64,000 bases of DNA from a virus. The DNA lies in IMG/VR virus record IMGVR_UViG_3300045988_089740, one strand, 5' to 3'. The position numbers were made by a program, and so were the translations under genes. Positions 2,793 to 46,800 of this stretch are shown one piece after another. How positions within the stretch are numbered: the first letter of the stretch is position 1; every line of letters starts with the position of its first letter. Under the pieces are notes generated by a model. It ran no database searches. It was not told the DNA's origin and saw only the letters and a list, made by a program, of their open reading frames with translations.

Positions 2793-4517
2793 ATGAACGT
2801 TTATCGCACTAGAGAAATACTGAAGACTTGCAGTATTTTCGATCTAAAATTAAAGGTGGCGTTTTACGCAAGAGTAAGCACAGAATCAGAAGACCAACAA
2901 GTTTCCATCCATCACCAGGATGAATATTACAGAAACTTCATTGCTCAAAATAGAAACTGGGTATTTGTTGGGGCGTACATTGACAATGGAATATCGGGAA
3001 TACGAACTGAGAAAAGAGACGAATTTCAACGTATGATGGCAGACGCCAAAGCTGGGAAAATTGATATGATCGTAACGAAAGAAATTACCAGGTTTGCGAG
3101 AAATACCTTAGACAGCATAAAATATACAAGAGAATTACTGATGTATGGCGTATGCGTATGGTTTCAAAACGACAACATCAATACGATTGACGAAGATAGT
3201 GAATTAAGACTTACCATAATGTCCGGAATTGCCCAAGATGAATCAAGAAAACTCTCCAATCGAATAAAATTCGGACATGCGCAGTCAATAAAAAATGGGG
3301 TAGTCCTTGGATCCCGAATATACGGGTACATCAAGAAAGACGGAAAGCTTACGATCGACCCCAAAACAGCTCCGATGATAAAAGAAATATTCGAAAAGTA
3401 TTCTACGGGAGAATGGTCCACATCCGCCATTGAGAAATATCTATACAAAAAAGGATATCGAAATTACAAAGGCGGAAAACTCAGCCGAGATAATATCAAA
3501 AAGATAATCAAGAATCCGAAATACAAAGGCTATTATTGCGGCGGAAAAGTAAAAATTGTCGATATGTTCACTAAAAAGCAAGAGTTTTTGCCAGAGGACG
3601 AATGGACAATGTACAAAGATGACGGGAACCATGTTCCGCAGATTGTAGATGAATCCGTATGGGATAAGGCAAATGTCATTATGCAAACACGGAGCGATGC
3701 GATCAAATCCCACAGAACGTCTTTCAAACAAAATAATTTATTCACTGGATATATCTTTTGCGGTAATGATGGAGCACCGTACTGGATGAAGCAGCACACT
3801 ATAAGAGGGCGTGAAGATGCAAGATGGGTATGTAGCTATCGTATAAAAAACGGAGCGCAAAGCTGTAACTCTTTTGGGATACGTGAGAGAGAATTAAGGG
3901 TGATGCTTGCAGACCTTATCAATAAATCCGGGGATATCCAAACAGCTATTGAAAAATATATAAGCTTGGTTGAAAAGAACATAGACTTCAGCAACGATGG
4001 GGCTGAGATAAGCCGACTTAAAAACATGATTCTCCAGATAGAGAAAAAGAAAGACAAGCTTCTTGACCTGAATCTGGATGGAATCATAACAAACTCTGAA
4101 TACATTGAAAAAAGTGAAAAATTCAAGGATGAAATTGAAAGCATAAACAATAAACTTTCCGAACTGGAATCAAAAGAAGAAGCCAGCAAAGATTTTCATT
4201 TGAAATTAAAAGAAATCGGTATGATATTAAACGATCTACAAGGAGTTTGCCCAGAAGACATCACCAAAACGGTTCTGGGAGAATTTTTGGACAAAATATT
4301 AATAAATCCAAAGGGCCCACAGGAGTGCGAAATTTTGTTCTTTTTAAAGACCGGAGATGTAAAAAAAAAGTCAATAACCGAGCGGGATAAACCGGGCTGT
4401 TCTGAATATTTTTTTTTAAATAAGTTCTCAGAACGACACGCCGTATTTTACAGGAAAATCAACTATGTGGATGGATGCGAAAAGGAATTTAACTACACTT
4501 ACGCATTTGCAATCTAA
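2793..4517 (+). CDS. large serine recombinase (phage integrase type)
   Basis: Resolvase catalytic N-domain AFYARVSTESEDQ (catalytic Ser), recombinase domain, Cys zinc-ribbon (CGNDG..WVCSYR..SC), coiled coil; 574 aa. Confidence 0.9.
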   Translation: MNVYRTREILKTCSIFDLKLKVAFYARVSTESEDQQVSIHHQDEYYRNFIAQNRNWVFVGAYIDNGISGIRTEKRDEFQRMMADAKAGKIDMIVTKEITRFARNTLDSIKYTRELLMYGVCVWFQNDNINTIDEDSELRLTIMSGIAQDESRKLSNRIKFGHAQSIKNGVVLGSRIYGYIKKDGKLTIDPKTAPMIKEIFEKYSTGEWSTSAIEKYLYKKGYRNYKGGKLSRDNIKKIIKNPKYKGYYCGGKVKIVDMFTKKQEFLPEDEWTMYKDDGNHVPQIVDESVWDKANVIMQTRSDAIKSHRTSFKQNNLFTGYIFCGNDGAPYWMKQHTIRGREDARWVCSYRIKNGAQSCNSFGIRERELRVMLADLINKSGDIQTAIEKYISLVEKNIDFSNDGAEISRLKNMILQIEKKKDKLLDLNLDGIITNSEYIEKSEKFKDEIESINNKLSELESKEEASKDFHLKLKEIGMILNDLQGVCPEDITKTVLGEFLDKILINPKGPQECEILFFLKTGDVKKKSITERDKPGCSEYFFLNKFSERHAVFYRKINYVDGCEKEFNYTYAFAI

Positions 4518-14353: not shown

Positions 14354-14514
14354 CCTGTATCAGTACGGATTTATGATAATGAAATAGATATCCAAAACCA
14401 AATTTCCTCCAAATGAGTTACGACTGATACAGGCGTTCCAGGATAAACATAAATATAGCAATGGTGTTTTTGAAGTATATCACGTGCGGCAGGGTTGAGC
14501 GACTGCCGCAACAT

Positions 14515-14586
14515 AGCGCATTGGCGAAGCGGTAACGCACCGGACTTTGACTCCGTTATGCGTGGGTTCGAATCCCACATGCGCCG
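14515..14586 (+). tRNA. tRNA-Gln (anticodon UUG)
   Basis: Cloverleaf by eye: acceptor 6 bp + A1-C72 mismatch, D stem GCG/CGC, anticodon stem CCGGA/TCCGT, loop CUUUGAC, T-arm GTGGG-TTCGAAT-CCCAC. Confidence 0.75.
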
Positions 14587-14802
14587 TTCTGCATCGAGTT
14601 TATATCTTTTTCTTGGTGCAGATTGGATTTTCTTTTTCCTTTTTTAACGAAATACCCTTTAACCACCTATCGCAACGGCGATGACTAAAGGAACAGTCAA
14701 ACGTTCCGGGTGGTTTTAACCTTTGTTGCGGCTGGTGGCCAAGAACTGCAACAGTAGTAAAAAGACAGATATCACATCGACCCTGTATCTTTTTGCTACT
14801 CA
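14587..14802 (+). ncRNA. structured inter-tRNA spacer
   Basis: No ORF; junction AACCACC 14661-14667 / GGTGGTT 14709-14715 enclosing hairpins ATCGC-AACG-GCGAT and GACT..AGTC; further GTTGC..GCAAC stem. Confidence 0.35.
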
Positions 14803-14876
14803 GGAAGCTTAGCTCAGTTGGTCAGAGTAACCGGCTCATAACCGGTCGGTCCTGGGTTCGAACCCCAGAGCTTCCA
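14803..14876 (+). tRNA. tRNA-Met or Ile2 (anticodon CAU), elongator type
   Basis: GGAAGCT/AGCTTCC acceptor, D GCTC/GAGT (C11-G24), anticodon stem ACCGG/CCGGT, loop CUCAUAA, T-arm CTGGG-TTCGAAC-CCCAG. Confidence 0.85.
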
Positions 14877-15410
14877 TTTCTCCCGAAGCTGTCCATCCGT
14901 TTTGTGGATAGAAAAAACTGCCGAATGTGTGTATGTGGGTTGTTTTTCAGAAGGTACGTAACGGCGTAGCCGGATTTGAAAAAGCAACTTCCCGTTCGGT
15001 TCTGTCTCTGAGTTGAATATGTCGCCAATGAGTGCACGTTGACGACAGGGAGTTTTCAAGAGGCATTTCAGGAATAATCCTCCGAAACAACTCCGTGGGA
15101 CTGGCACGGATGAAAACAGTCTAGTGGAAAGCATAACACGATAAACCTATTGCTAACCCGGGAATCCGGGTTATTCGGAATGTGCAAGTAACTGGGAACG
15201 ACCTGGTCGTAGACTAGGTCTTGATGGTTCGAATCCATCCGTTCCGCTTGTCTGGAGCCTGAAAGTTTGGCGTGGGAATAGCGCAGGGCAGCGCATGGGA
15301 ATGTAATTCCGAGTTCCGGACATGTTTGCTGCCTATCGGATTGTAAAGTGGTCTCCCTTAAAGTAGGCAATAAGTGAACGTGTTGAAATGGTTCTTCCAG
15401 ATATGTACAT
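14877..15410 (+). ncRNA. candidate large structured ncRNA between tRNAs (GOLLD/ROOL-like or novel)
   Basis: 534 nt without credible ORF, flanked by tRNAs, many hairpins (e.g. AACCCGG-GAAT-CCGGGTT 15155-15172, GGAAT-GTA-ATTCC, GAAC..GTTC); embeds a tRNA-like unit. Confidence 0.35.
15176..15247 (+). tRNA. aberrant tRNA-like gene (anticodon GUA if canonical register)
   Basis: 72 nt in canonical register: acceptor CGGAATG/CGTTCCG (one G-U), anticodon stem CCTGG/CTAGG, loop UCGUAGA (C33), perfect T-arm GATGG-TTCGAAT-CCATC, but D stem cannot pair. Confidence 0.4.
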
Positions 15411-15482
15411 CGCAGGATGGAGAAGCGGAATCTCGCAAGGTTCATACCCTTGAGAACGGCGGTTCAAATCCGTCTCCTGCAA
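15411..15482 (+). tRNA. tRNA-Met (CAU), initiator-like
   Basis: C1-A72 mismatch and A11-U24 pair (initiator hallmarks); D GAGA/TCTC, anticodon stem CAAGG/CCTTG, loop UUCAUAC, T-arm GGCGG-TTCAAAT-CCGTC. Confidence 0.75.
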
Positions 15483-15598
15483 TTAATCCGTCTATCGTTC
15501 AGCGGATTAAAGCAAATTCTCAATATACCTTCTTTCTATGAATGTGGAACTCAACCCAATTGCTCTTTCATTAGAACAATTGACCGTGACAGACGTCA

Positions 15599-15669
15599 TG
15601 GAATGTAGCTCAGTGGTAGAGCAGTGACTTACAAGTCATGTGTCGCAGGTTCGATTCCTGCCTTTCCGA
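15599..15669 (+). tRNA. aberrant tRNA (Val-like UAC) with 6-nt anticodon loop
   Basis: Good D arm GCTC-AGTGGTA-GAGC and T-arm GCAGG-TTCGATT-CCTGC; anticodon stem GTGAC/GTCAT leaves loop UUACAA (6 nt); acceptor has U1-G72 and U6-U67. Confidence 0.45.
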
Positions 15670-16121: not shown

Positions 16122-16273
16122 CAGGTAAAGAAATCAAAGATGAATGCTCCAAATGCGGAAATATCCTCGAATGCGAATTGTTCCGTCAGGGGCATGGAAT
16201 AAAACAGGAACGTGAGAATATAGCAAAGATGATCAAGTGCCAGATGAAGCACAGGGAGGAAAGAGAGAAATGA
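16112..16273 (+). CDS. 53-aa Cys-containing protein
   Basis: ATG 16112 overlapping upstream end; CSKCGNILEC; ATGA coupling to next gene at 16270. Confidence 0.35.
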   Translation: MRIAGKEIKDECSKCGNILECELFRQGHGIKQERENIAKMIKCQMKHREEREK

Positions 16274-16983
16274 ACGAATTGAAGGTATTAAATGAGCAGG
16301 AAGTGTTAGGAAAACAGTTTAAGGTTTACGGAACAGCAGAGGAACCACTGTTCCTGGCTAAAGATGTAGCGGAGTGGATTGAGTATGACACATCATCAGT
16401 GCATAAGATGCTTACCAATGTAGACGATGATGAAAAGGTTCGGAAGAATGTTCCGACCCTTGGAGGAACACAGGAATCATGGTGCCTTACCGAGAACGGA
16501 CTTTACGAAGTCCTGATGCAATCCAGAAAGCCGATCGCAAAGCAATTTAAGAAAGAAGTCAAAGAGATTTTGAAAACCATCCGTAAGCATGGCATATATG
16601 CTACAGACAATGTTATCGACAATATTCTCAATAATCCAGACTTTGGCATCGAACTTCTGACCAAACTGAAAGAGGAACGTGCTGCAAGAGTAGAAGCTGA
16701 GAGAAAGAACGCTATTCTGATGCACGTCAATAAGACGTATACCATTACTGAGATTGCTAAAGAACTGGGACTGAAATCAGCGATGCAGCTAAACCGGATT
16801 CTGGCAGAAAAGAAAATCCAGTATCAGGTGAACGGTACGTGGTTGATGTACTCCAACTACAGTGACTGCGGATATGAAGAAATCAAACAGGAAGTATTGG
16901 ATTCTGGAAAAGTAATCTACCACAGGCGAATCACACAGATGGGACGGGAGTTTATTCTTGATTTGTTTGAGAAAACAGCATAA
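16270..16983 (+). CDS. BRO-N / KilAC-type phage antirepressor
   Basis: FKVYGTAEEPLFLAKDVAEWIEY (Bro-N) and ITEIAKELGLKSAMQLNRILAEKKIQ..WLMY (KilAC-like); start at internal ATG 16270. Confidence 0.75.
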   Translation: MNELKVLNEQEVLGKQFKVYGTAEEPLFLAKDVAEWIEYDTSSVHKMLTNVDDDEKVRKNVPTLGGTQESWCLTENGLYEVLMQSRKPIAKQFKKEVKEILKTIRKHGIYATDNVIDNILNNPDFGIELLTKLKEERAARVEAERKNAILMHVNKTYTITEIAKELGLKSAMQLNRILAEKKIQYQVNGTWLMYSNYSDCGYEEIKQEVLDSGKVIYHRRITQMGREFILDLFEKTA

Positions 16984-20491: not shown

Positions 20492-20518
20492 TAAATAAAT
20501 CAGTCAGAGAGCCACGTG

Positions 20519-20564
20519 AGAGCCAGACTAAATCCTAAAAGAAAGGAGGTCTGGCTCTATTTTT
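20519..20564 (+). terminator. hairpin-U tract abutting terL start, SD in loop
   Basis: AGAGCCAGAC/GTCTGGCTCT 20519-20558, loop carries AAAGGAG, then AUUUUU and ATG 20565. Confidence 0.4.
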
Positions 20565-22307
20565 ATGTCAAAAATTACAGAAGGCTCATTTGAATGGTAT
20601 CGGGCAGTCTTAAATCAAATCATCAGCGGAGATATGTCTGTTTACCAGAATCAGAAAGACTGCCTTGATCTGTTGTTAAACATGAACATTGATTTACCGT
20701 TTACGGAGAATCCGGAAGCACAGCAAATGGCAATAAAAGTAAGTAAGTATACTCATAACGTAGCCGCAAGACAAGCTGCACTGACGGGAAGCGGTAATTT
20801 TGATGATATCTACTGGCAGTGTTTGCTGTTGGAAGCACAGAACTATCAGGTTGACAGCGGACTCCTTTACCTTGAAAAGAACCGAATCCCGAAAGAACGA
20901 TTCTACGAACCACGAAGAAATGTGTTCTTACAACATAACATCATAGGGTCACTGCAAGACCTGATGGATGACAAATTAGATATATTTGCATTAAGCGTAC
21001 CTCCGGGTTGTGGCAAGAGTACTCTGGAAGATTTCTTTTTATCATTGGTAGGTGGATGGTTCCCGAATGACTTTAACCTGTCTTCAGCACACAGTAGCAT
21101 TTTGACACGTTCCCTTTATGATGGCGTTCTGGAAATTATCAATGATCCCGTGGAATACACGTGGCATGAAATATTCCCGAACGTAGAAATTCAAGGAACA
21201 AACGCAAAGGAAACTACAGTCAATCTCGAAAGAAACGGACGATTTAAGACATGGACATTTCGTTCTATTGATGGTTCTTTGACTGGTGCCACTAGATGCA
21301 ATAGATTTCTTACTGCCGATGACCTTGTGTCTGGTATTGAAGAAGCTTTGAATAAGAACCGACTTGATACCTTATGGACAAAAGTGGTAAATGACTTACG
21401 TTCCCGTAGACTTGAGGGATGCAAAGAGTTTTATATTGCCACCAGATGGTCAGTACATGACCCTATTGGAAAACTGCAACAACTGTATGCCGGAAACCCA
21501 CGGGCAAGGTTTATTGCAGTGCCAGCACTTGATGAAAATGGAAAGAGCAATTTTCTGTTTACGGTAAATGGATTCTCCGAGAAATATTTCAATGATGCTA
21601 AGGAATCCATGGATGAAATTTCTTACAACTGTCTTTATCAGCAACAACCGGTAGAACGTGAGGGATTATTATTACCGCCAGATAAATTAAAACGATTCTT
21701 TTTCAGTAAAGAAGACGTGCCGGATGGATGCGCGGATGAATACATCATCATTCCAGATAAAGATGCAGATGCAATATGGGCGGTATGCGATACAAAAGAT
21801 AAAGGAACTGACTTCGAATCATTACCGATTGCATACCAATACGGAGATAAATTTTTCTTTCCTGATGTGGTGTTTGATGACACTACAGACTATGACATTC
21901 TGGATAGAAAGACAGCAGATATTTTGATAAGACATAACCCACATAAGATTCGTTTCGAATCAAATAATGTCGGAAACCGCGTGGCACACAATATTCAGAA
22001 AATGATTACTGGAAAGTGCAGAGCTGAAATTGAGACAAAACCAACGTCGGCAAATAAAGAAACAAAGATTCTCGTAAATTCGGACTATATAGCAAAACAT
22101 TTTTATTTTCTGCATCCAAGTCAGTACAAAGCAAAGTCTGATTACGGATTATTTATGGCTAATGTAACTACGTACACTACTAGGGCAAAAGTACCACATG
22201 ATGATGGAATCGATTCTTTGGCTATGATGGCTGAGTACACACAAAATCCATTAGGCGGTAAAGCGACAGCAATGCAGAATCCATTATGGGGAGGGAGAAT
22301 GAGATGA
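20565..22307 (+). CDS. terL: terminase large subunit
   Basis: Walker A PPGCGKST, Walker B-like FLTADD, nuclease-domain pattern ATRWSVHDPIG; 580 aa, followed by portal. Confidence 0.85.
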   Translation: MSKITEGSFEWYRAVLNQIISGDMSVYQNQKDCLDLLLNMNIDLPFTENPEAQQMAIKVSKYTHNVAARQAALTGSGNFDDIYWQCLLLEAQNYQVDSGLLYLEKNRIPKERFYEPRRNVFLQHNIIGSLQDLMDDKLDIFALSVPPGCGKSTLEDFFLSLVGGWFPNDFNLSSAHSSILTRSLYDGVLEIINDPVEYTWHEIFPNVEIQGTNAKETTVNLERNGRFKTWTFRSIDGSLTGATRCNRFLTADDLVSGIEEALNKNRLDTLWTKVVNDLRSRRLEGCKEFYIATRWSVHDPIGKLQQLYAGNPRARFIAVPALDENGKSNFLFTVNGFSEKYFNDAKESMDEISYNCLYQQQPVEREGLLLPPDKLKRFFFSKEDVPDGCADEYIIIPDKDADAIWAVCDTKDKGTDFESLPIAYQYGDKFFFPDVVFDDTTDYDILDRKTADILIRHNPHKIRFESNNVGNRVAHNIQKMITGKCRAEIETKPTSANKETKILVNSDYIAKHFYFLHPSQYKAKSDYGLFMANVTTYTTRAKVPHDDGIDSLAMMAEYTQNPLGGKATAMQNPLWGGRMR

Positions 22308-22723
22308 ATACACGACAATATCTTGAGCAAGTGCAAGATTCTGATAGAAAAATACAGAATAAAATACAGGAAGAATACCGCTTAAGGCTTTTGGCAACCA
22401 GTATATCTTCTTTTTCAAATGGAGATAAAGTGCAGACTTCCGGCGGAAAAGACCGTGTTGGTGATGCTGTAACCAGAATTGTTGAATTGCAGCAGGAAAT
22501 AGCATCTGATGTCAAGGAACTGGCAGAATTGCAAATGAAAGTTTCCGGAGATATCAATGACATGGAAAACTCCATGTACTCATCCTTACTTCATAAGAGA
22601 TACATAGAATTTAAAAATCTGGTCACGGTCGCAGACGAGATGGGATATTCCGTACAGCATATCCGTTCCTGCCATGGAAAAGCCATTGAAGCTTTGCGGA
22701 AACAAAAGCATTTTGAAAGTTAA
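22304..22723 (+). CDS. putative late-gene regulator with sigma-70 region-4-like HTH
   Basis: ATGA overlap with terL; C-terminus YIEFKNLVTVADEMGYSVQHIRSCHGKAIEAL resembles sigma r4 / ArpU-RinA-like regulators. Confidence 0.45.
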   Translation: MNTRQYLEQVQDSDRKIQNKIQEEYRLRLLATSISSFSNGDKVQTSGGKDRVGDAVTRIVELQQEIASDVKELAELQMKVSGDINDMENSMYSSLLHKRYIEFKNLVTVADEMGYSVQHIRSCHGKAIEALRKQKHFES

Positions 22724-22731
22724 TATGTTTT

Positions 22732-22820
22732 AATATGGAATCATATGTTCTATGTATAATATAATGTAACCTGTAAAACGAGCATCGGAGAGTAATCCGG
22801 TGCTTTTTTAATGCCCAAAA
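22732..22820 (+). promoter_or_regulatory. late-operon cassette copy 1 (box, -10, hairpin, U6)
   Basis: AATATGGAATCATAT 22732-22746; TATAAT 22755-22760; hairpin GCATCGG/CCGGTGC 22782-22803; U6 22804-22809; AATGCCCAAAAAT. Confidence 0.55.
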
Positions 22821-22836
22821 ATGGGAGGTGTAGGCA

Positions 22837-24330
22837 GTGGGCAGAAATAAAATGAATTTCATTGACTTATGCCGGGGCGAATTTGGCCGCAAAATTGCCT
22901 ATACCGGTGTAAGCCAGATCACAACAGCAAATGTCATAAAAGTTATTTCTAATACAATCGGCATTCATAATAGAAACAGAACTTTGATCGATTACTTGTA
23001 CCGGTACTACAAAGGAGATCAGCCGATCCTTTATAGAGAGAAGTTGGTTCGTCCGGAAATTAATAACCGAGTGTGTGAAAATCATGCACTTGAAGTTGTT
23101 CGCTTTAAATCATCTCAGACATATGGAGAACCTATTCAGTATGTATGTAAAAAGAGCAGGGCTACAGAACGGGTGAATAAACAGGTCGATTTATTCAATG
23201 ATTACTTAAAAGAAGCAAATGCAGAAGCACGTAACATTGAACTTGGAACCTATCAGAGTGCCGTAGGAACTGCATATAAAGCTATTCTAAAAGAGGATGA
23301 TTGGACGAGCGACAGTGATATTTCTCCATTCAACATTTTTATACCATATCCTAGCGATTGCTATATTGTTTACTCTCGTAAGAACGGAAAGCCAATGCTC
23401 TCAGTGCAGATTCTTAAGGATGAAAACGAACAGCAGTATTATTTATGCTTTTCAGCAAAACAATATTTCGAGATTCAGAATGGACAGATTACAAAAACCG
23501 GCATCAATGGTTTTGGTGGCATCCCGGTAGTTGAGTACCCGAATAACCACGATCGTCTTTCTGATATCGAGATTGCGATAACCATGTTTGACACTATGAA
23601 CAACATGCAGTCAAACAGGATGGATGGCGTAGAACAGTTCGTGCAAGCCCTTATGAAGTTTAAGAACTGTGAGATTGATGAAAGCGAATTTTTGAAAATG
23701 ATCAAGCTCGGCGCTATCTCTGTAAAGGATACTGGAAATGGTTGCCAGTCAGATGTTGACCTGATGACCGCTGAACTGAATCAAACAGAAAGCCAAGTTG
23801 CAAAAGACGATATCTACAGCAACATGCTTATTGTTGAAGGTATGCCGGACAGGCAGCAACAATCTTCTGGCGATACCGGCCAAGCTGTATATCTCAGAAA
23901 TGGATGGGATTTTGCAGAACGTAGAGCAAAACTGGATGAACCATTTATCCGGGAAGCTGAGAAAGCAAGTGCCAGAATCATTCTGAATATCATCCGACAG
24001 ACCACAAAGGATATTTCAATCTCAACAAGAGATTTTGATGTAAAGATAACCAGAAACCCGACAGATAACATGCTTGTCAAAGCACAGGCTCTTGACTATC
24101 TGTTTAAGAATAAAATTCATCCGCTGATTGCACTGATTACTTGCGGATTATTTAGTGATCCACAAAAGGTATATGAAATGAGTTTGCCTTACTTGGGAAC
24201 TGTATATCCCGAACTGGCAGACCCGGACGCGGAAATGCAGAAAGCACAACAATTGATTGATAAAAACGGTAAGAATTCGGCTGAAATTGATTCAACGGTA
24301 AATTCTTCGGCTATCAATCAAAACTCGTAA
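22837..24330 (+). CDS. portal protein (SPP1 gp6-like)
   Basis: GTG start after GGGAGGTG (alt ATG 22852); LIDYLYRYYKGDQPIL..RPEINNRV..N.A..VVRFK pattern of SPP1-type portals; position after terL. Confidence 0.8.
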   Translation: MGRNKMNFIDLCRGEFGRKIAYTGVSQITTANVIKVISNTIGIHNRNRTLIDYLYRYYKGDQPILYREKLVRPEINNRVCENHALEVVRFKSSQTYGEPIQYVCKKSRATERVNKQVDLFNDYLKEANAEARNIELGTYQSAVGTAYKAILKEDDWTSDSDISPFNIFIPYPSDCYIVYSRKNGKPMLSVQILKDENEQQYYLCFSAKQYFEIQNGQITKTGINGFGGIPVVEYPNNHDRLSDIEIAITMFDTMNNMQSNRMDGVEQFVQALMKFKNCEIDESEFLKMIKLGAISVKDTGNGCQSDVDLMTAELNQTESQVAKDDIYSNMLIVEGMPDRQQQSSGDTGQAVYLRNGWDFAERRAKLDEPFIREAEKASARIILNIIRQTTKDISISTRDFDVKITRNPTDNMLVKAQALDYLFKNKIHPLIALITCGLFSDPQKVYEMSLPYLGTVYPELADPDAEMQKAQQLIDKNGKNSAEIDSTVNSSAINQNS

Positions 24331-24344
24331 ATTCAATTATCAAA

Positions 24345-24378
24345 GGAACCAAGGAATAACATCCAAGGTTCCTTTTTT
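24345..24378 (+). terminator. intrinsic terminator after portal
   Basis: GGAACC-AA-GG / CC-AA-GGTTCC hairpin then U6. Confidence 0.5.
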
Positions 24379-24486
24379 AATACAAAAAAAATAATGCAAC
24401 AGCCCGTGAGCGTAAATCGGGTACAGATCATGTGCGGAGCGAACCGTGTGAAAAAAGTGTGATGGTCTGAAAGAAAGGAGATTTCT

Positions 24487-27547: not shown

Positions 27548-27802
27548 ATGAATTATACAGACTTTTCAGAAGATGAAAGAAAGTTTTATCTAAGTGAATC
27601 CGGGTTTGATTCCCGAGAAAAAGAGTTTTTCCGGTTGAGAGTTTATGAGGAAAAGACGTTGTTTGAAACAGCAGAGATTATGGGGTATAGTCCTAGAACC
27701 ATTGACCGTATAAACCGAAAAGTAAAAAAGAAGATTGTTAAAGTTGCCCCGATGTACTATCGGGGCTTTTCTTTGTATCATGGCGAAAACATGGCGAAAT
27801 AG
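27548..27802 (+). CDS. small sigma-70 region-4 / LuxR-type HTH protein
   Basis: SD GGGAGGATGGTGG; REKEFFRLRVYEEKTLFETAEIMGYSPRTIDRINRKVKKKI. Confidence 0.5.
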   Translation: MNYTDFSEDERKFYLSESGFDSREKEFFRLRVYEEKTLFETAEIMGYSPRTIDRINRKVKKKIVKVAPMYYRGFSLYHGENMAK

Positions 27803-27878
27803 TGTCGTTTAAATACTTAAGTTTCTCCCCTATAATATAAGTATAGAGAAAAGCTTACAGAGATGGGAGGAACACACT

Positions 27879-33339: not shown

Positions 33340-33504
33340 ATGTTATATAGAACATTACTGAAACTTAAAGAAAGAAATGGACTTACAGATGATTTAAAGA
33401 ATAAGATTGATATTTTCTTTGCAACTGGCAGGATTACCGAGGAACAGTATAATGAGCTGATGGATGTTAATAAGGAAGAAGAACCGAAAGCAGAAAATAA
33501 TTAA
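33340..33504 (+). CDS. XkdX-like small protein
   Basis: 54 aa; ..IDIFFATGRITEEQYNELM matches XkdX pattern (G.IT.E.Y..l); below ORF-track cut-off. Confidence 0.45.
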   Translation: MLYRTLLKLKERNGLTDDLKNKIDIFFATGRITEEQYNELMDVNKEEEPKAENN

Positions 33505-33796
33505 CTAAAGCAGATGGCTCTGGCAATAGCAATAGATATAAGGAAATCCCTGTATTTACAAGGGTTTACGGCTCATGGACTTTTGGGACGAAAGCTTTAG
33601 TGAATTAATTTTAAGCAAAAATCGAATAAAAGATACCCATTTCACATGGGGCGTGTTATAATAAACACAACACAATAAAAAGGGAGCTGAACTCCCACCT
33701 ACCAAGTAAAAAGTTCAGCTCCAAGCACCACGAAGGGTACGGGTATATTATAGCACAGTACCTTCCCTTTGTGAACCCAAAAGGAGGGTATTTTTT

Positions 33797-33943
33797 ATGA
33801 GAGAACAGTTTATTGACGGGTTCATGGCAGAGCTGAACGGAGAAGTGCCAGATGAATATTTGCGAAAAATCACAAAAGAAAAAGTTGAAAATATGAAGGT
33901 TTTAACAGATGCTGAAAAACAGTATATTTTAAGAAGTGAATAA
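33797..33943 (+). CDS. 48-aa hypothetical protein
   Basis: SD AAAGGAGGG then ATG 33797; preceded by TGtTATAAT promoter 33654-33662 and two leader hairpins. Confidence 0.4.
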   Translation: MREQFIDGFMAELNGEVPDEYLRKITKEKVENMKVLTDAEKQYILRSE

Positions 33944-33984
33944 AAAAAGAAGGGGAGTTTTCTCTCTCCCTTCTTTAGTACGGA

Positions 33985-34224
33985 TTACAGATACTCACCA
34001 GATTCAGCATCGGTGATCTCGATTGGATTCTCAATGTCGTAGGATTCCAGATCGTTACTATCAAACAGCTTGTAAACCAGGACTACCTCTTTTCCATCCT
34101 CACGTGTTGCAATTCCTGAAAGTGTTTGTGTATCAGGATCGTGTGTGAGCTGATGAGCAATAGTATACTTGATGCCTTTGATAGCTACAGTTTCATTGAG
34201 TAAATCGTTAAGCTGATTATTCAT
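33985..34224 (-). CDS. hypothetical protein, 79 aa
   Basis: Minus-strand SD AAAGGAGG then ATG 34224; lone reverse gene in late region. Confidence 0.5.
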   Translation of the reverse strand: MNNQLNDLLNETVAIKGIKYTIAHQLTHDPDTQTLSGIATREDGKEVVLVYKLFDSNDLESYDIENPIEITDAESGEYL

Positions 34225-34411
34225 ATAAAAACCTCCTTTTATAATATAGCTTAAATTATACATCATAGATTACCAACACACAATAAAAAAGCCCCCAGAA
34301 TCTGAGGAAAAACTGGGTACTGGAAGATTTGAAATCTGGGGCTATGCCGTTCCCAAATTTCTATATAAAAATAACACAAAAAAAATAATCTTGTCAATGG
34401 AGGAAGAATAT

Positions 34412-35309: not shown

Positions 35310-35314
35310 AACGG

Positions 35315-35345
35315 AGCCCGGGATTTTCCGGGCTTCTATTTTTTT
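35315..35345 (+). terminator. intrinsic terminator
   Basis: AGCCCGG/CCGGGCT + UCUAUUUUUUU. Confidence 0.55.
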
Positions 35346-35399
35346 ACCTTAAAACTAGATAAAAATAATCTAGTTTATTATACGATTTGCCTATGCAAA

Positions 35400-35480
35400 A
35401 ATATGGAATCATATGGCTTGTTTTTTGTACAATTAAGATGCGAAGCATCTACCGGAAAGGTAGGTGCTTTTTTCATGCCA
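35400..35480 (+). promoter_or_regulatory. late-operon cassette copy 2
   Basis: AATATGGAATCATAT 35400-35414; TACAAT 35428-35433; hairpin GCATCTACC/GGTAGGTGC 35445-35467; U6; CATGCCAAAAAAA. Confidence 0.55.
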
Positions 35481-35524
35481 AAAAAATAAATCATAAAAGA
35501 TAATTGAACAGGCAAGGTGATTAA

Positions 35525-43043: not shown

Positions 43044-43055
43044 TACGGTAAAACC

Positions 43056-43107
43056 AACAGGCTTACCCGACGGGGGACAAGCGGAAATGCCTTGCCGCCT
43101 GCCTGTT
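43056..43107 (+). repeat. hairpin repeat X1 flanking HNH gene
   Basis: AACAGGC/GCCTGTT stem; shares AGGCT...CCTGCCT frame and loop words with X2. Confidence 0.4.
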
Positions 43108-43158
43108 GATTTACATACATTTCAAGGCATCTTATATACGAAAGGCAGGTATTTTTCT

Positions 43159-43538: not shown

Positions 43539-43597
43539 CAGTAGGCTAGGTTGGCCGCCGAAAAGTGTAAACCTTGATGCACCTGCCTACTGTTTTT
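43539..43597 (+). repeat. hairpin repeat X2 flanking HNH gene (terminator-like)
   Basis: CAGTAGGC/GCCTACTG stem + U5. Confidence 0.4.
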
Positions 43598-43657
43598 ATA
43601 AATCAAGGATTCTGGCATATTATGGAGATGCCAACGACCAACAAGGAGGTTATCATT

Positions 43658-46652: not shown

Positions 46653-46712
46653 AGCTATGGACCGGGGAGAAATCTCCGGTTCTTTCTTTTTTGCTTGAAT
46701 GCCATATGTAAA

Positions 46713-46800
46713 AATATGGAATCATATTATATTAAAAACGTATAATGAATAATCATAAAGCGTCTATCTTTTGATAGGCGCTTTTTTCATGTACAAAAAT
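46713..46800 (+). promoter_or_regulatory. late-operon cassette copy 3
   Basis: AATATGGAATCATAT 46713-46727; TATAAT 46741-46746; hairpin GCGTCTATC/GATAGGCGC 46760-46781; U6; CATGTACAAAAAT. Confidence 0.55.

Follow-up and report, generated by a model that had tools for sequence, protein, structure and literature searches.

The window analysed here is a 64-kb stretch of phage DNA in which the late genes are preceded, at three places, by one compact cassette consisting of a repeat-type operator, a -10 hexamer and a hairpin followed by a U-run. Around the first copy the gene order is terL (20565-22307), ltr, cassette 1 and the portal gene. As a preliminary description of this DNA had claimed, each copy stands directly 5' of a late block: cassette 1 before the portal and major head genes, cassette 2 before the tape-measure tail block, and cassette 3 before a block encoding a DUF6711 protein, a 1122-aa tail protein and the endolysin. 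The features discussed below are the following, with promoter and operator parts named as predicted from the sequence.

22304-22723, plus strand: ltr, late transcriptional regulator gene of the DUF1492 / LtrB family (139 aa, taking Met7 of the longest ORF as the first residue)
22722-22746, plus strand: putative operator of cassette 1, NATATG repeats starting at 22722, 22732 and 22742 (the third ends at 22747), with the 15-mer at 22732-22746
22760-22765, plus strand: predicted -10 hexamer of cassette 1, TATAAT, 13 nt 3' of the box; predicted start at ~22772
22782-22821, plus strand: predicted leader terminator of cassette 1 (stem dG -12.3 kcal/mol, d-score 16.8, model match 54.5 bits)
24345-24391, plus strand: fourth copy of the tail, box-less, behind a different hairpin (GGAACC../..GGUUCC), with U6 and AAUACAAAAAAAA
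27548-27802, plus strand: second small sigma-region-4-like ORF (84 aa, pI 9.2), inside the head block
35313-35345, plus strand: predicted operon-end terminator 5' of cassette 2 (d-score 15.7)
35390-35414, plus strand: putative operator of cassette 2, half-repeat CCTATG at 35390-35395 and the 15-mer at 35400-35414
35428-35433, plus strand: predicted -10 hexamer of cassette 2, TACAAT; predicted start at ~35440
35445-35486, plus strand: predicted leader terminator of cassette 2 (dG -13.9 kcal/mol, d-score 21.2, model match 55.1 bits)
46659-46692, plus strand: predicted operon-end terminator 5' of cassette 3, of ordinary type
46703-46727, plus strand: putative operator of cassette 3, CATATG at 46703-46708 and the 15-mer at 46713-46727
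46741-46746, plus strand: predicted -10 hexamer of cassette 3, TATAAT; predicted start at ~46753
46760-46799, plus strand: predicted leader terminator of cassette 3 (dG -13.2 kcal/mol, d-score 22.5, model match 59.1 bits)

The 15-mer box AATATGGAATCATAT occurs in the window in exactly three copies, at 22732, 35400 and 46713 and all on the plus strand, in agreement with the earlier observation; the next-best matches carry three mismatches and are as frequent as expected by chance. The proposal that the three sites share one order of parts also held, since we could read the same order at all three: an NATATG-type half-repeat 10 bp 5' of the box, the box itself, a 13-nt spacer, the -10 hexamer, a leader of 11-16 nt, an 8-9-bp hairpin, T6, the motif (A/C)ATG..CAAAAA, a ribosome-binding site and the start codon. 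A covariance model of hairpin and tail, run over the 64 kb, gave strong matches at these three places only (54-59 bits, the next reaching at most 22.7 bits), and repeat finding in the window independently recovered the box family (D2) and the tail family (D1). Some details were revised. The box had been described as palindromic, which stands, but it can equally be read as phased direct NATATG repeats with a 10-bp period; and the -10 hexamer is present as described, yet at 13 nt from the box in every copy rather than at 8-13 nt. The three 13-nt spacers share their length while their sequences are unrelated.

In cassette 1 the first NATATG repeat overlaps the ltr stop codon (gene end 22723), and GGAATC within the box is placed as the -35 hexamer. 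This site contains an overlapping pair of TATAAT hexamers, TATAATATAAT, the other of which lies at 22755-22760; we take 22760-22765 as the -10 element because the second hexamer restores the common 13-nt spacing. Relative to the predicted start, the box would thus occupy -40 to -26, with GGAATC at -35 to -30 and 17 bp 5' of TATAAT, and the terminator would end at about +34 to +38 of the predicted transcript in the three cassettes. TAnnnT-like hexamers, candidates for a promoter-proximal pause element of the sigma-dependent kind used with lambda Q, also occur just past the -10 element (TATAATATAAT, TACAATTAAGAT and TATAATGAATAAT); chance would supply about one per site in such A+T-rich leaders. 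With its coordinates corrected, the hairpin of cassette 1 spans 22782-22803 with arms GCAUCGGA/UCCGGUGC and a U.G at pair 4, and is followed by U6 (22804-22809), the tail AAUGCCCAAAAA (22810-22821) and the portal start codon GTG at 22837. The corresponding elements are found at 35445-35467 (U6 35468-35473, tail CAUGCCAAAAAAA, first tail-block gene from 35525) and at 46760-46781 (U6 46782-46787, tail CAUGUACAAAAA, next gene from 46816). U6 and tail were correctly described for the three cassettes, but the tail is not exclusive to the box, as the fourth copy at 24345-24391 demonstrates.

Next, we compared the operator and promoter with those of related phages, in which the absence of the element would have spoken against it. 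The element does occur there, with box, -10 and hairpin either conserved or covarying. Close IMG/VR relatives (~80-kb phages) keep the box, the -10 element and the stem and vary in spacers, loops and tail; for example, variants of cassette 2 within the species change the spacer and not the box. In more distant relatives the box differs along with the regulator, reading AATATGaaatCATATAgaatGATATG / AGAATGATATG in L054 (Ltr 71% identical), GACACCtgatAGCACTgaatAACACT / TGAATAACACT in L058 (45%) and ATGATACC, repeated at a 20-bp period, / TGAATGATACC in L001 (41%). The lineage with the ATGATACC box carries its own box before a hairpin and U-run at three places, namely 5' of the portal gene, of the site-2 gene homolog and of the site-3 genes. 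Changes in operator and activator thus go together at several sites; in the L058 lineage the box is matched exactly at the portal cassette only. More generally, 10 of the 15 lineages compared, with Ltr identities as low as 25%, have the pattern GAAT-N17/18-TAnnnT at most 15 nt from the ltr stop, against a chance expectation of 0.027 per 110 nt (L001 was read by eye). The pattern often comes with an extended TGn, several relatives carrying an extended TGnTAnnnT -10, and it is kept together with the hairpin and U-run as far as a Streptococcus phage. Judged by these sequence comparisons, the box serves the late activator Ltr as operator, or putative binding site, and at the same time as -35 element. 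We consider it unlikely that the promoter is constitutive in the manner of lambda pR', because the operator stands where the -35 element should be.

These spacings also bear on where late transcription would begin. In an alternative arrangement, the late start would lie downstream of the hairpin, with the box acting from ~75-90 bp upstream and the hairpin merely ending the upstream operon. RACE in phi11 and 80alpha placed the late 5' end 23 bp upstream of terS, past the terminator (PMC3152322, PMC3753634), in keeping with such a start, and TTT(A/C)AT within the U-run and tail constitutes a weak -10-like hexamer. However, the spacing between box and TATAAT is exact in all copies and lineages, whereas the distance from box to tail varies by more than 15 bp; the tail hexamers are poor -10 matches with no -35 element or operator at a working distance; and sites 2 and 3 already have upstream terminators of their own. 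Moreover, the start codon follows U6 at a distance of just 27 nt at site 1 and 28 nt at site 3, and we therefore place no promoter downstream, so that late transcripts must cross the terminator. A start beyond the hairpin thus appears very improbable.

The presumed activator is encoded by ltr, whose product the preliminary description had rightly picked as a candidate factor: it is a DUF1492 / sigma-region-4-like protein. Its Pfam match to DUF1492 (PF07374) scores 27.1 bits against a cutoff of 21.5, a match to Sigma70_r4 is also found, and the protein falls into PHROG 36, 'transcriptional regulator'. The family comprises 4314 representatives at E <= 0.001, and the gene most likely starts at 22304 because most family members align from query residue 7. 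A search of representative genomes for a prophage in a host yielded only distant homologs (25-35% identity), in Clostridia and Lachnospiraceae MAGs. In the AF2 (AlphaFold) model (pLDDT 89.7), Ltr has a long helical hairpin at its N terminus and three helices that form the C-terminal domain. The C-terminal 50-60 residues of the model superpose on ECF sigma region 4 with an rmsd of 1-3 A, and structure superposition of the N-terminal part on sigma factors revealed no sigma-2 counterpart. BFVD models of DUF1492 proteins match the Ltr model over its full length (TM 0.88), and a PDB sequence search with Ltr returned nothing meaningful. ECF sigma region 4 is the domain that binds GGAAC-type -35 elements, and the modelled C-terminal domain of Ltr is a sigma-region-4-like HTH of this type. 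The computed pI of Ltr is 6.4, with 20 K+R and 21 D+E residues.

The hairpin was proposed to be a covarying structure with a conserved base, and this is borne out. The stems alone fold with -12.3 to -13.9 kcal/mol in the three cassettes, and with flanks included the z-scores are -3.2 to -5.8. Across nine hand-picked hairpins, 96% of cells were paired and 7 of 9 pairs showed compensatory change (slid controls 30-47%); across 28 distinct model-aligned hairpins the figures were 98.4% and 6 of 9 pairs (slid controls 36-52%). In the latter set pair 1 is G-C throughout, pair 2 is C-G in 27 of 28 hairpins, pair 3 covaries, and pair 4, described earlier as U-G in every copy of the window, is U.G in 25. 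In natural variants of cassette 3, pair 2 has turned from C-G into U-A, a compensatory change, and pair 3 from G-C into G.U. We regard the hairpin as a structure of the plus-strand RNA because G.U wobbles are mismatches on the other strand. A double-stranded DNA site for a dimer was considered at the same place and rejected, given that the half-site spacing is 10-14 bp, that the apical sequences differ and that G.U pairs are mismatches in DNA.

With U6 at its 3' side, the hairpin has every sequence feature of a terminator, as expected from the earlier reading of a promoter and an intrinsic terminator within ~35-45 nt, and by these features it rates as an intrinsic terminator. The d-scores of the three cassettes (16.8-22.5) lie in the same range as those of the operon-end terminators at 35313 and 46659. 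Taken on their own, the identities of promoter and terminator, as read from the sequence, are highly probable. Hairpin and U-run follow the -10 element at 10-31 nt in 12 cassettes (nine distinct loci and the three of the window), including those of the Heliusvirales-type gut phage L053 and the Streptococcus uberis phage Javan630, whose stems begin G-C, C-G, C-G, U.G and continue into U5-CUAUGCCC. In other lineages the terminator lies 63-118 nt downstream, and a simple scan of up to 260 nt found none in three DUF1492 lineages with long, structured and conserved leaders (L186, L045 and L187); Ltr function thus does not strictly require the terminator.

Several other readings of the leader were set aside. 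With Rfam 15 at gathering and E-value thresholds, no family was found at any cassette, the best match being SpF25 (23 bits against a 48-bit cutoff). The matches to SpF25, sraA and ncr1015 are sub-threshold terminator look-alikes; for SpF25 this is a chance terminator resemblance because it is a chromosomal pneumococcal sRNA outside any phage, located in TIGR4 between SP0649 and SP0650. Pairing of the terminator 3' arm with the AUGCC tail was seen by eye in the L053 and L310 group and not in the window. A mini-ORF from the tail AUG (MPK...) is without a Shine-Dalgarno sequence and inconsistent in frame and length, and GATGC-gaa-GCATC at site 2, a possible competitor of the terminator 5' arm, lacks an equivalent at the other two sites.

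A hairpin so close to the predicted 5' end might also be a stem-loop that stabilises the mRNA against a 5'-exonuclease, such as RNase J1 in Firmicutes, or a cleavage mark, termination being incidental. In Bacillus, stem-loops near the 5' end are well known to stabilise mRNAs, the hairpins of the window begin ~6-11 nt from the predicted start, and the late 5' ends of 80alpha and phi11, just past the leader terminator, could be processed ends. Nevertheless, the U-run, which a stabiliser would not need, is kept in every copy and lineage; the -10-to-hairpin distance of 10-31 nt often leaves the hairpin far from the 5' end; and a like tail stands behind the box-less terminator that closes the portal gene. 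We therefore regard stabilisation or processing as improbable.

The position of the hairpins among other terminators further suggests how they might work. The cassette 1 hairpin is the sole terminator between the terL-ltr operon and the portal gene, and must therefore insulate the late genes from upstream transcription. Cassettes 2 and 3 are preceded by the operon-end terminators listed above; some relatives have no equivalent of the one at 46659-46692, the upstream ORF reaching the box there, and in some relatives the leader terminator of site 3 is the sole terminator at that place. The box-less terminator at 24345-24391 lies 3' of the portal gene and 5' of the scaffold and capsid genes, and its hairpin is kept, with altered stem sequences, in L058, L001 and L054. 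No promoter was recognised after it, and this conserved terminator between portal and capsid hints at terminator-resistant late transcription. In reporter assays with the related RinA system, the rinA-terS terminator blocks transcription from an upstream promoter, and Ltr alone turns on a downstream reporter; among the proteins so assayed in S. aureus was a DUF1492 member from Streptococcus suis, published as both necessary and sufficient for activation of the late operon (PMC3152322, PMC3753634). By analogy, these published data suggest that the activator alone may suffice for late activation, and for a terminator that blocks upstream transcription together with activation by Ltr alone, a gate is the simplest model.

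We propose the following mechanism. The sigma-region-4-like domain of Ltr would bind the phased repeats, whose core GGAATC takes the place of the -35 element, while the -10 element would be recognised by the host sigma-A polymerase, with a start ~7 nt past it. The nascent RNA would fold at once into the GC-based hairpin, followed by U6. This terminator would halt polymerases coming from upstream and would also damp leaky starts that are independent of the activator, whereas polymerases started by Ltr would cross it; most likely, Ltr would leave the promoter with the polymerase and hinder the action of the hairpin at the RNA exit channel. The logic of the gate would be that of lambda Q, achieved by an unrelated sigma-4-like protein. 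We infer the start of transcription, actual termination and a read-through conferred by Ltr, as well as the requirement for an antitermination factor in that read-through that the preliminary description had drawn from the arrangement. As a whole, the model of an Ltr-dependent late promoter with a built-in terminator that Ltr-started polymerase passes is tentative, and we give it somewhat less than an even chance. Several observations count against it: if read-through were processive, strong terminators just 5' of cassettes 2 and 3, and indeed three promoters, would be difficult to account for; no antiterminator homolog (Q, N, NusG/LoaP or others) was found among the ~40 ORFs scanned; the late 5' end of 80alpha and phi11 was mapped downstream of the terminator; the simple scan showed no leader terminator in three DUF1492 lineages; and this Ltr, unlike the family as published, is not basic.

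The same promoter and terminator evidence would be accommodated by a leaky attenuator and insulator, in which the terminator stops most polymerases of any origin and Ltr boosts initiation so far that a small read-through is enough. Before Ltr is made, the terminator would silence both upstream read-through and basal starts at the near-consensus -10. An unmodified, non-processive polymerase would fit the three re-initiations and the ordinary terminators before cassettes 2 and 3, the lack of an antiterminator homolog among the scanned ORFs agrees with it, and the wobble conserved close to the foot of the stem might set termination to an efficiency below 100%. On the other hand, such a design would be wasteful for genes needed in large amounts, and the terminator at the portal end would yield less capsid than portal mRNA, the opposite of virion stoichiometry. 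It also leaves unexplained why the first four stem pairs are conserved from Streptococcus to gut phages. We consider it rather unlikely, but a serious competitor.

As an observation in its own right, conservation across lineages is wide both for the stem base, including the U.G of pair 4, and for the (U)AUGCC(C) tail. One might also imagine that a protein other than Ltr reads the stem base, the AUGCC tail or both, and either prevents or enforces termination; candidates would be the 84-aa sigma-4-like product of 27548-27802 and host NusA or NusG. It would account for the retention of U.G at pair 4 in 25 of 28 hairpins while the apical pairs covary freely, and for the recurrence of the same stem base and UAUGCCC tail in Heliusvirales-like and Streptococcus cassettes; in addition, the small sigma-4-like ORF is syntenic in relatives, among them L058. 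However, the published reporters needed Ltr only, the tail varies more than the stem within species, and the two hairpin groups may merely share ancestry. The 84-aa product, which the preliminary description had put forward as a second candidate, fares poorly in that role, as the reporters did not need it and its ORF lies downstream of cassette 1, so that it comes too late for the first round of transcription; it is retained here as a candidate accessory factor. Gating by a separate factor is, on balance, quite unlikely.

Returning to the proposed gate operated by Ltr itself, we believe that the cassette is of wider interest. A very large group of Gram-positive phages relies on Ltr regulators for the control of packaging and lysis, and RinA, a regulator of the Ltr type, also controls the transfer of staphylococcal pathogenicity islands. 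The cassette unit, which Streptococcus prophages and abundant human-gut phages alike have kept, provides a compact test case, with an operator at -35, a near-consensus -10 and a strong predicted terminator within 40 nt. If it is true that only Ltr-initiated polymerase passes, Gram-positive phages would possess a Q-like late switch based on a sigma-4-like protein. Should the terminator simply be leaky, the GAAT-N17/18-TAnnnT rule should still be useful for annotating uncultured gut phages, and the design of a promoter with a terminator as insulator for tightly off, phage-inducible expression parts.

Comparison with known phage regulators places the cassette among several partly similar systems. 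P2 Ogr is a zinc-finger protein and the Mu activators are Mor/C; their operators centre near -55, the proteins contact the alpha subunit, and leader terminators are not known to be part of these promoters. Similar to P2 Ogr and Mu C, one small activator would here serve several late operons, each of which has the identical operator at a set distance from its promoter, but the protein families are unrelated to Ltr. As in ECF sigma factors and T4 MotA-AsiA, a sigma-4-like HTH would act on a GGAA(C/T)-type -35 element while the host sigma reads the -10; in contrast to these, the Ltr model has no sigma-2 domain but a long helical hairpin instead, and its putative site consists of tandem phased repeats. 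To our knowledge, no AsiA-like partner of Ltr has been described. Xp10 p7 is a small phage protein that both switches promoter use and antiterminates. P23-45 gp39 likewise binds polymerase, switches promoter use and antiterminates (PMC3351154). Both set a precedent for one small protein at the flap and RNA-exit region that combines a change of initiation with suppression of termination; unlike what is proposed for Ltr, they are not known to bind DNA or to have a dedicated promoter-terminator cassette, and no similarity of Ltr to either was detected.

A parallel in logic is lambda Q (pR'-qut-tR'). There too, the late promoter is closely followed by an intrinsic terminator, an element for the regulator lies within the promoter, a short terminated RNA is the default product (predicted here at 34-38 nt), and the terminator blocks polymerases that skipped the loading site. 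The cassette differs in that an operator replaces the -35 element, that there are three loading sites rather than one, and that no Q-family protein was found by Pfam or PHROG among the ORFs scanned; the Ltr fold matches ECF sigma region 4, and neither sequence nor fold similarity to Q families was found for Ltr.

Finally, the preliminary description knew of no equivalent, but one exists: the Ltr superfamily of Gram-positive phage late activators, comprising RinA, ArpU, LtrA, LtrB/DUF1492 and LtrC (Ferrer 2011, PMC3152322; Quiles-Puchalt 2013, PMC3753634), was already known, including its repeats and terminator (PMC3753634). The cassette system belongs to this late-activation system. DUF1492 represents family III (LtrB), and the sites to which Ltr regulators bind are direct repeats located right behind the regulator gene (PMC3753634). 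In accordance with this, the window has a small DUF1492-family protein encoded just 5' of the late genes, direct repeats at the ltr stop, which run at a 10-bp period, change with the protein and would act as the specificity element, and a predicted terminator that parts ltr from the first late gene. What differs here is the presence of three operator-promoter copies per genome, compared with one promoter before terS, the position of ltr after terL and before the portal gene, still directly 5' of a late block, the terminator immediately after the promoter, and the regulator itself, since the family was described as small basic proteins (PMC3152322, PMC3753634) whereas this Ltr is small and not basic. 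In the literature searched, we found neither an account of a leader terminator belonging to Ltr promoters nor later work on the structure or mechanism of Ltr proteins.

The position of the start sets the cassette apart from RinA phages, in which it was mapped downstream of the terminator and more than 155 bp from the RinA binding site (PMC3152322, PMC3753634); here, the terminator sits 10-16 nt past the -10 element, and the start must therefore lie 5' of it. The rinA-terS region of 80alpha shares the geometry of the cassette, with two TGGCAGT repeats, 10 nt, TAAAAT, a 77-nt leader, a hairpin, T6 and AATTTTAAAAAG. A 59-nt block is necessary and sufficient for RinA specificity (PMC3753634), and this block contains the TAAAAT hexamer of 80alpha. 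It is conceivable, if doubtful, that DUF1492 proteins, and perhaps all Ltr-type regulators, are promoter-loaded sigma-4-like antiterminators analogous to lambda Q. Ltr would then nucleate initiation at a GAAT-type -35 operator and escort the polymerase through a leader terminator with a conserved stem base (G-C, C-G, N-N', U.G), and in 80alpha-like RinA phages the true start would adjoin the repeats, 5' of the rinA-terS terminator. If this were true for RinA, a start next to the repeats would resolve the gap to the mapped start, and the geometry of 80alpha thus offers a testable alternative that could explain the long-distance activation problem of RinA.

Ahead of the scaffold and capsid genes, the box-less terminator of the portal gene (portal-gene terminator) is followed by an intergenic leader that recurs in related loci:

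Window 24392-24486: leader of ~90 nt, with the portal-gene terminator on its 5' side and the scaffold gene on its 3' side
L058 12079-12183; L001 3905-4007; L054 12670-12765: its counterparts

The leader is near-identical in relatives whose late regulator Ltr (DUF1492 family) shares just 41-45% identity with that of the window, and the copy in L054 carries a few compensatory changes (GCGG/CCGU to GCUG/CAGC). It has no match in Rfam and could represent a structured RNA that controls expression of the scaffold and capsid genes. Another conserved structured leader lies 3' of distant DUF1492 genes:

L186 10393-10520; L189 10393-10560; L045 1800-1960; also L052 and L048: structured leader of other Ltr lineages

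Here the leader is located after a GAAT-N18-TAnnnT promoter, its conserved parts occur in the order AGGAAGGUUG..ACCUCC..GCUGCCAGGUG..CCUGGUGGCUG, and it includes one covarying hairpin (GCCGG/CCGGC versus CCAGGU/ACCUGG), with a terminator further 3' in some lineages. Rfam yielded no match at E ≤ 1, and we propose that this element may act in cis as a leader RNA of late operons.

Several further features of the window lie in or near its structural and packaging genes:

20518-20567: 10-bp hairpin (GAGAGCCAGAC..GUCUGGCUCU) around the terL translation start
Within 27548-27836: second small sigma-region-4-like ORF (84 aa, pI 9.2), head block
33340-34390: ~1-kb island within the late region, with minus-strand promoter-like and terminator-like sites
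43055-43127 and 43539-43608, plus strand: two Rfam int-alpA RNA motif matches (42.6 and 55.2 bits; cutoff 35.8)

The terL hairpin, which carries the Shine-Dalgarno sequence in its loop and 3' arm, is followed by AUUUUU and then by the terL ATG at 20565, an arrangement that may represent a terminator or translational control of terminase. A strong terminator-like hairpin (27746-27766) is contained in the 3' end of the 84-aa ORF, directly after which comes a good match to a sigma-A-type promoter (TTTAAA-17-TATAAT, 27808-27836). The island, flanked by a tail-fiber-like gene and by the genes ahead of the second cassette (operator box, -10, hairpin and U6), has minus-strand promoter-like sites at 33775 and 34397 and terminator-like sites at 33696 and 34308, and is probably a reverse-oriented moron. 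Both int-alpA matches fall within the tail region, shortly 3' of the tape-measure gene.

Elsewhere, the window encodes anti-defence, tRNA and recombinase functions:

2793-4517: large serine recombinase
14514-15669: four clustered tRNA genes, of which one has an abnormal anticodon loop
18996-19280: homolog of the anti-Thoeris protein Tad8 (E = 1e-31)

The recombinase suggests that the phage is temperate, although the representative genomes yielded no prophage copy of it.

Finally, the cassette layout is matched in a Staphylococcus phage:

L184 1720-1880 (record positions about 16220-16380): rinA-terS intergenic region of Staphylococcus phage 80alpha

In 80alpha, two TGGCAGT repeats stand directly 3' of the rinA stop, with TAAAAT 10 nt further on, and terS is preceded by a hairpin that carries T6 and AATTTTAAAAAG. 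Published mapping placed the start site 3' of this hairpin/T6 terminator.
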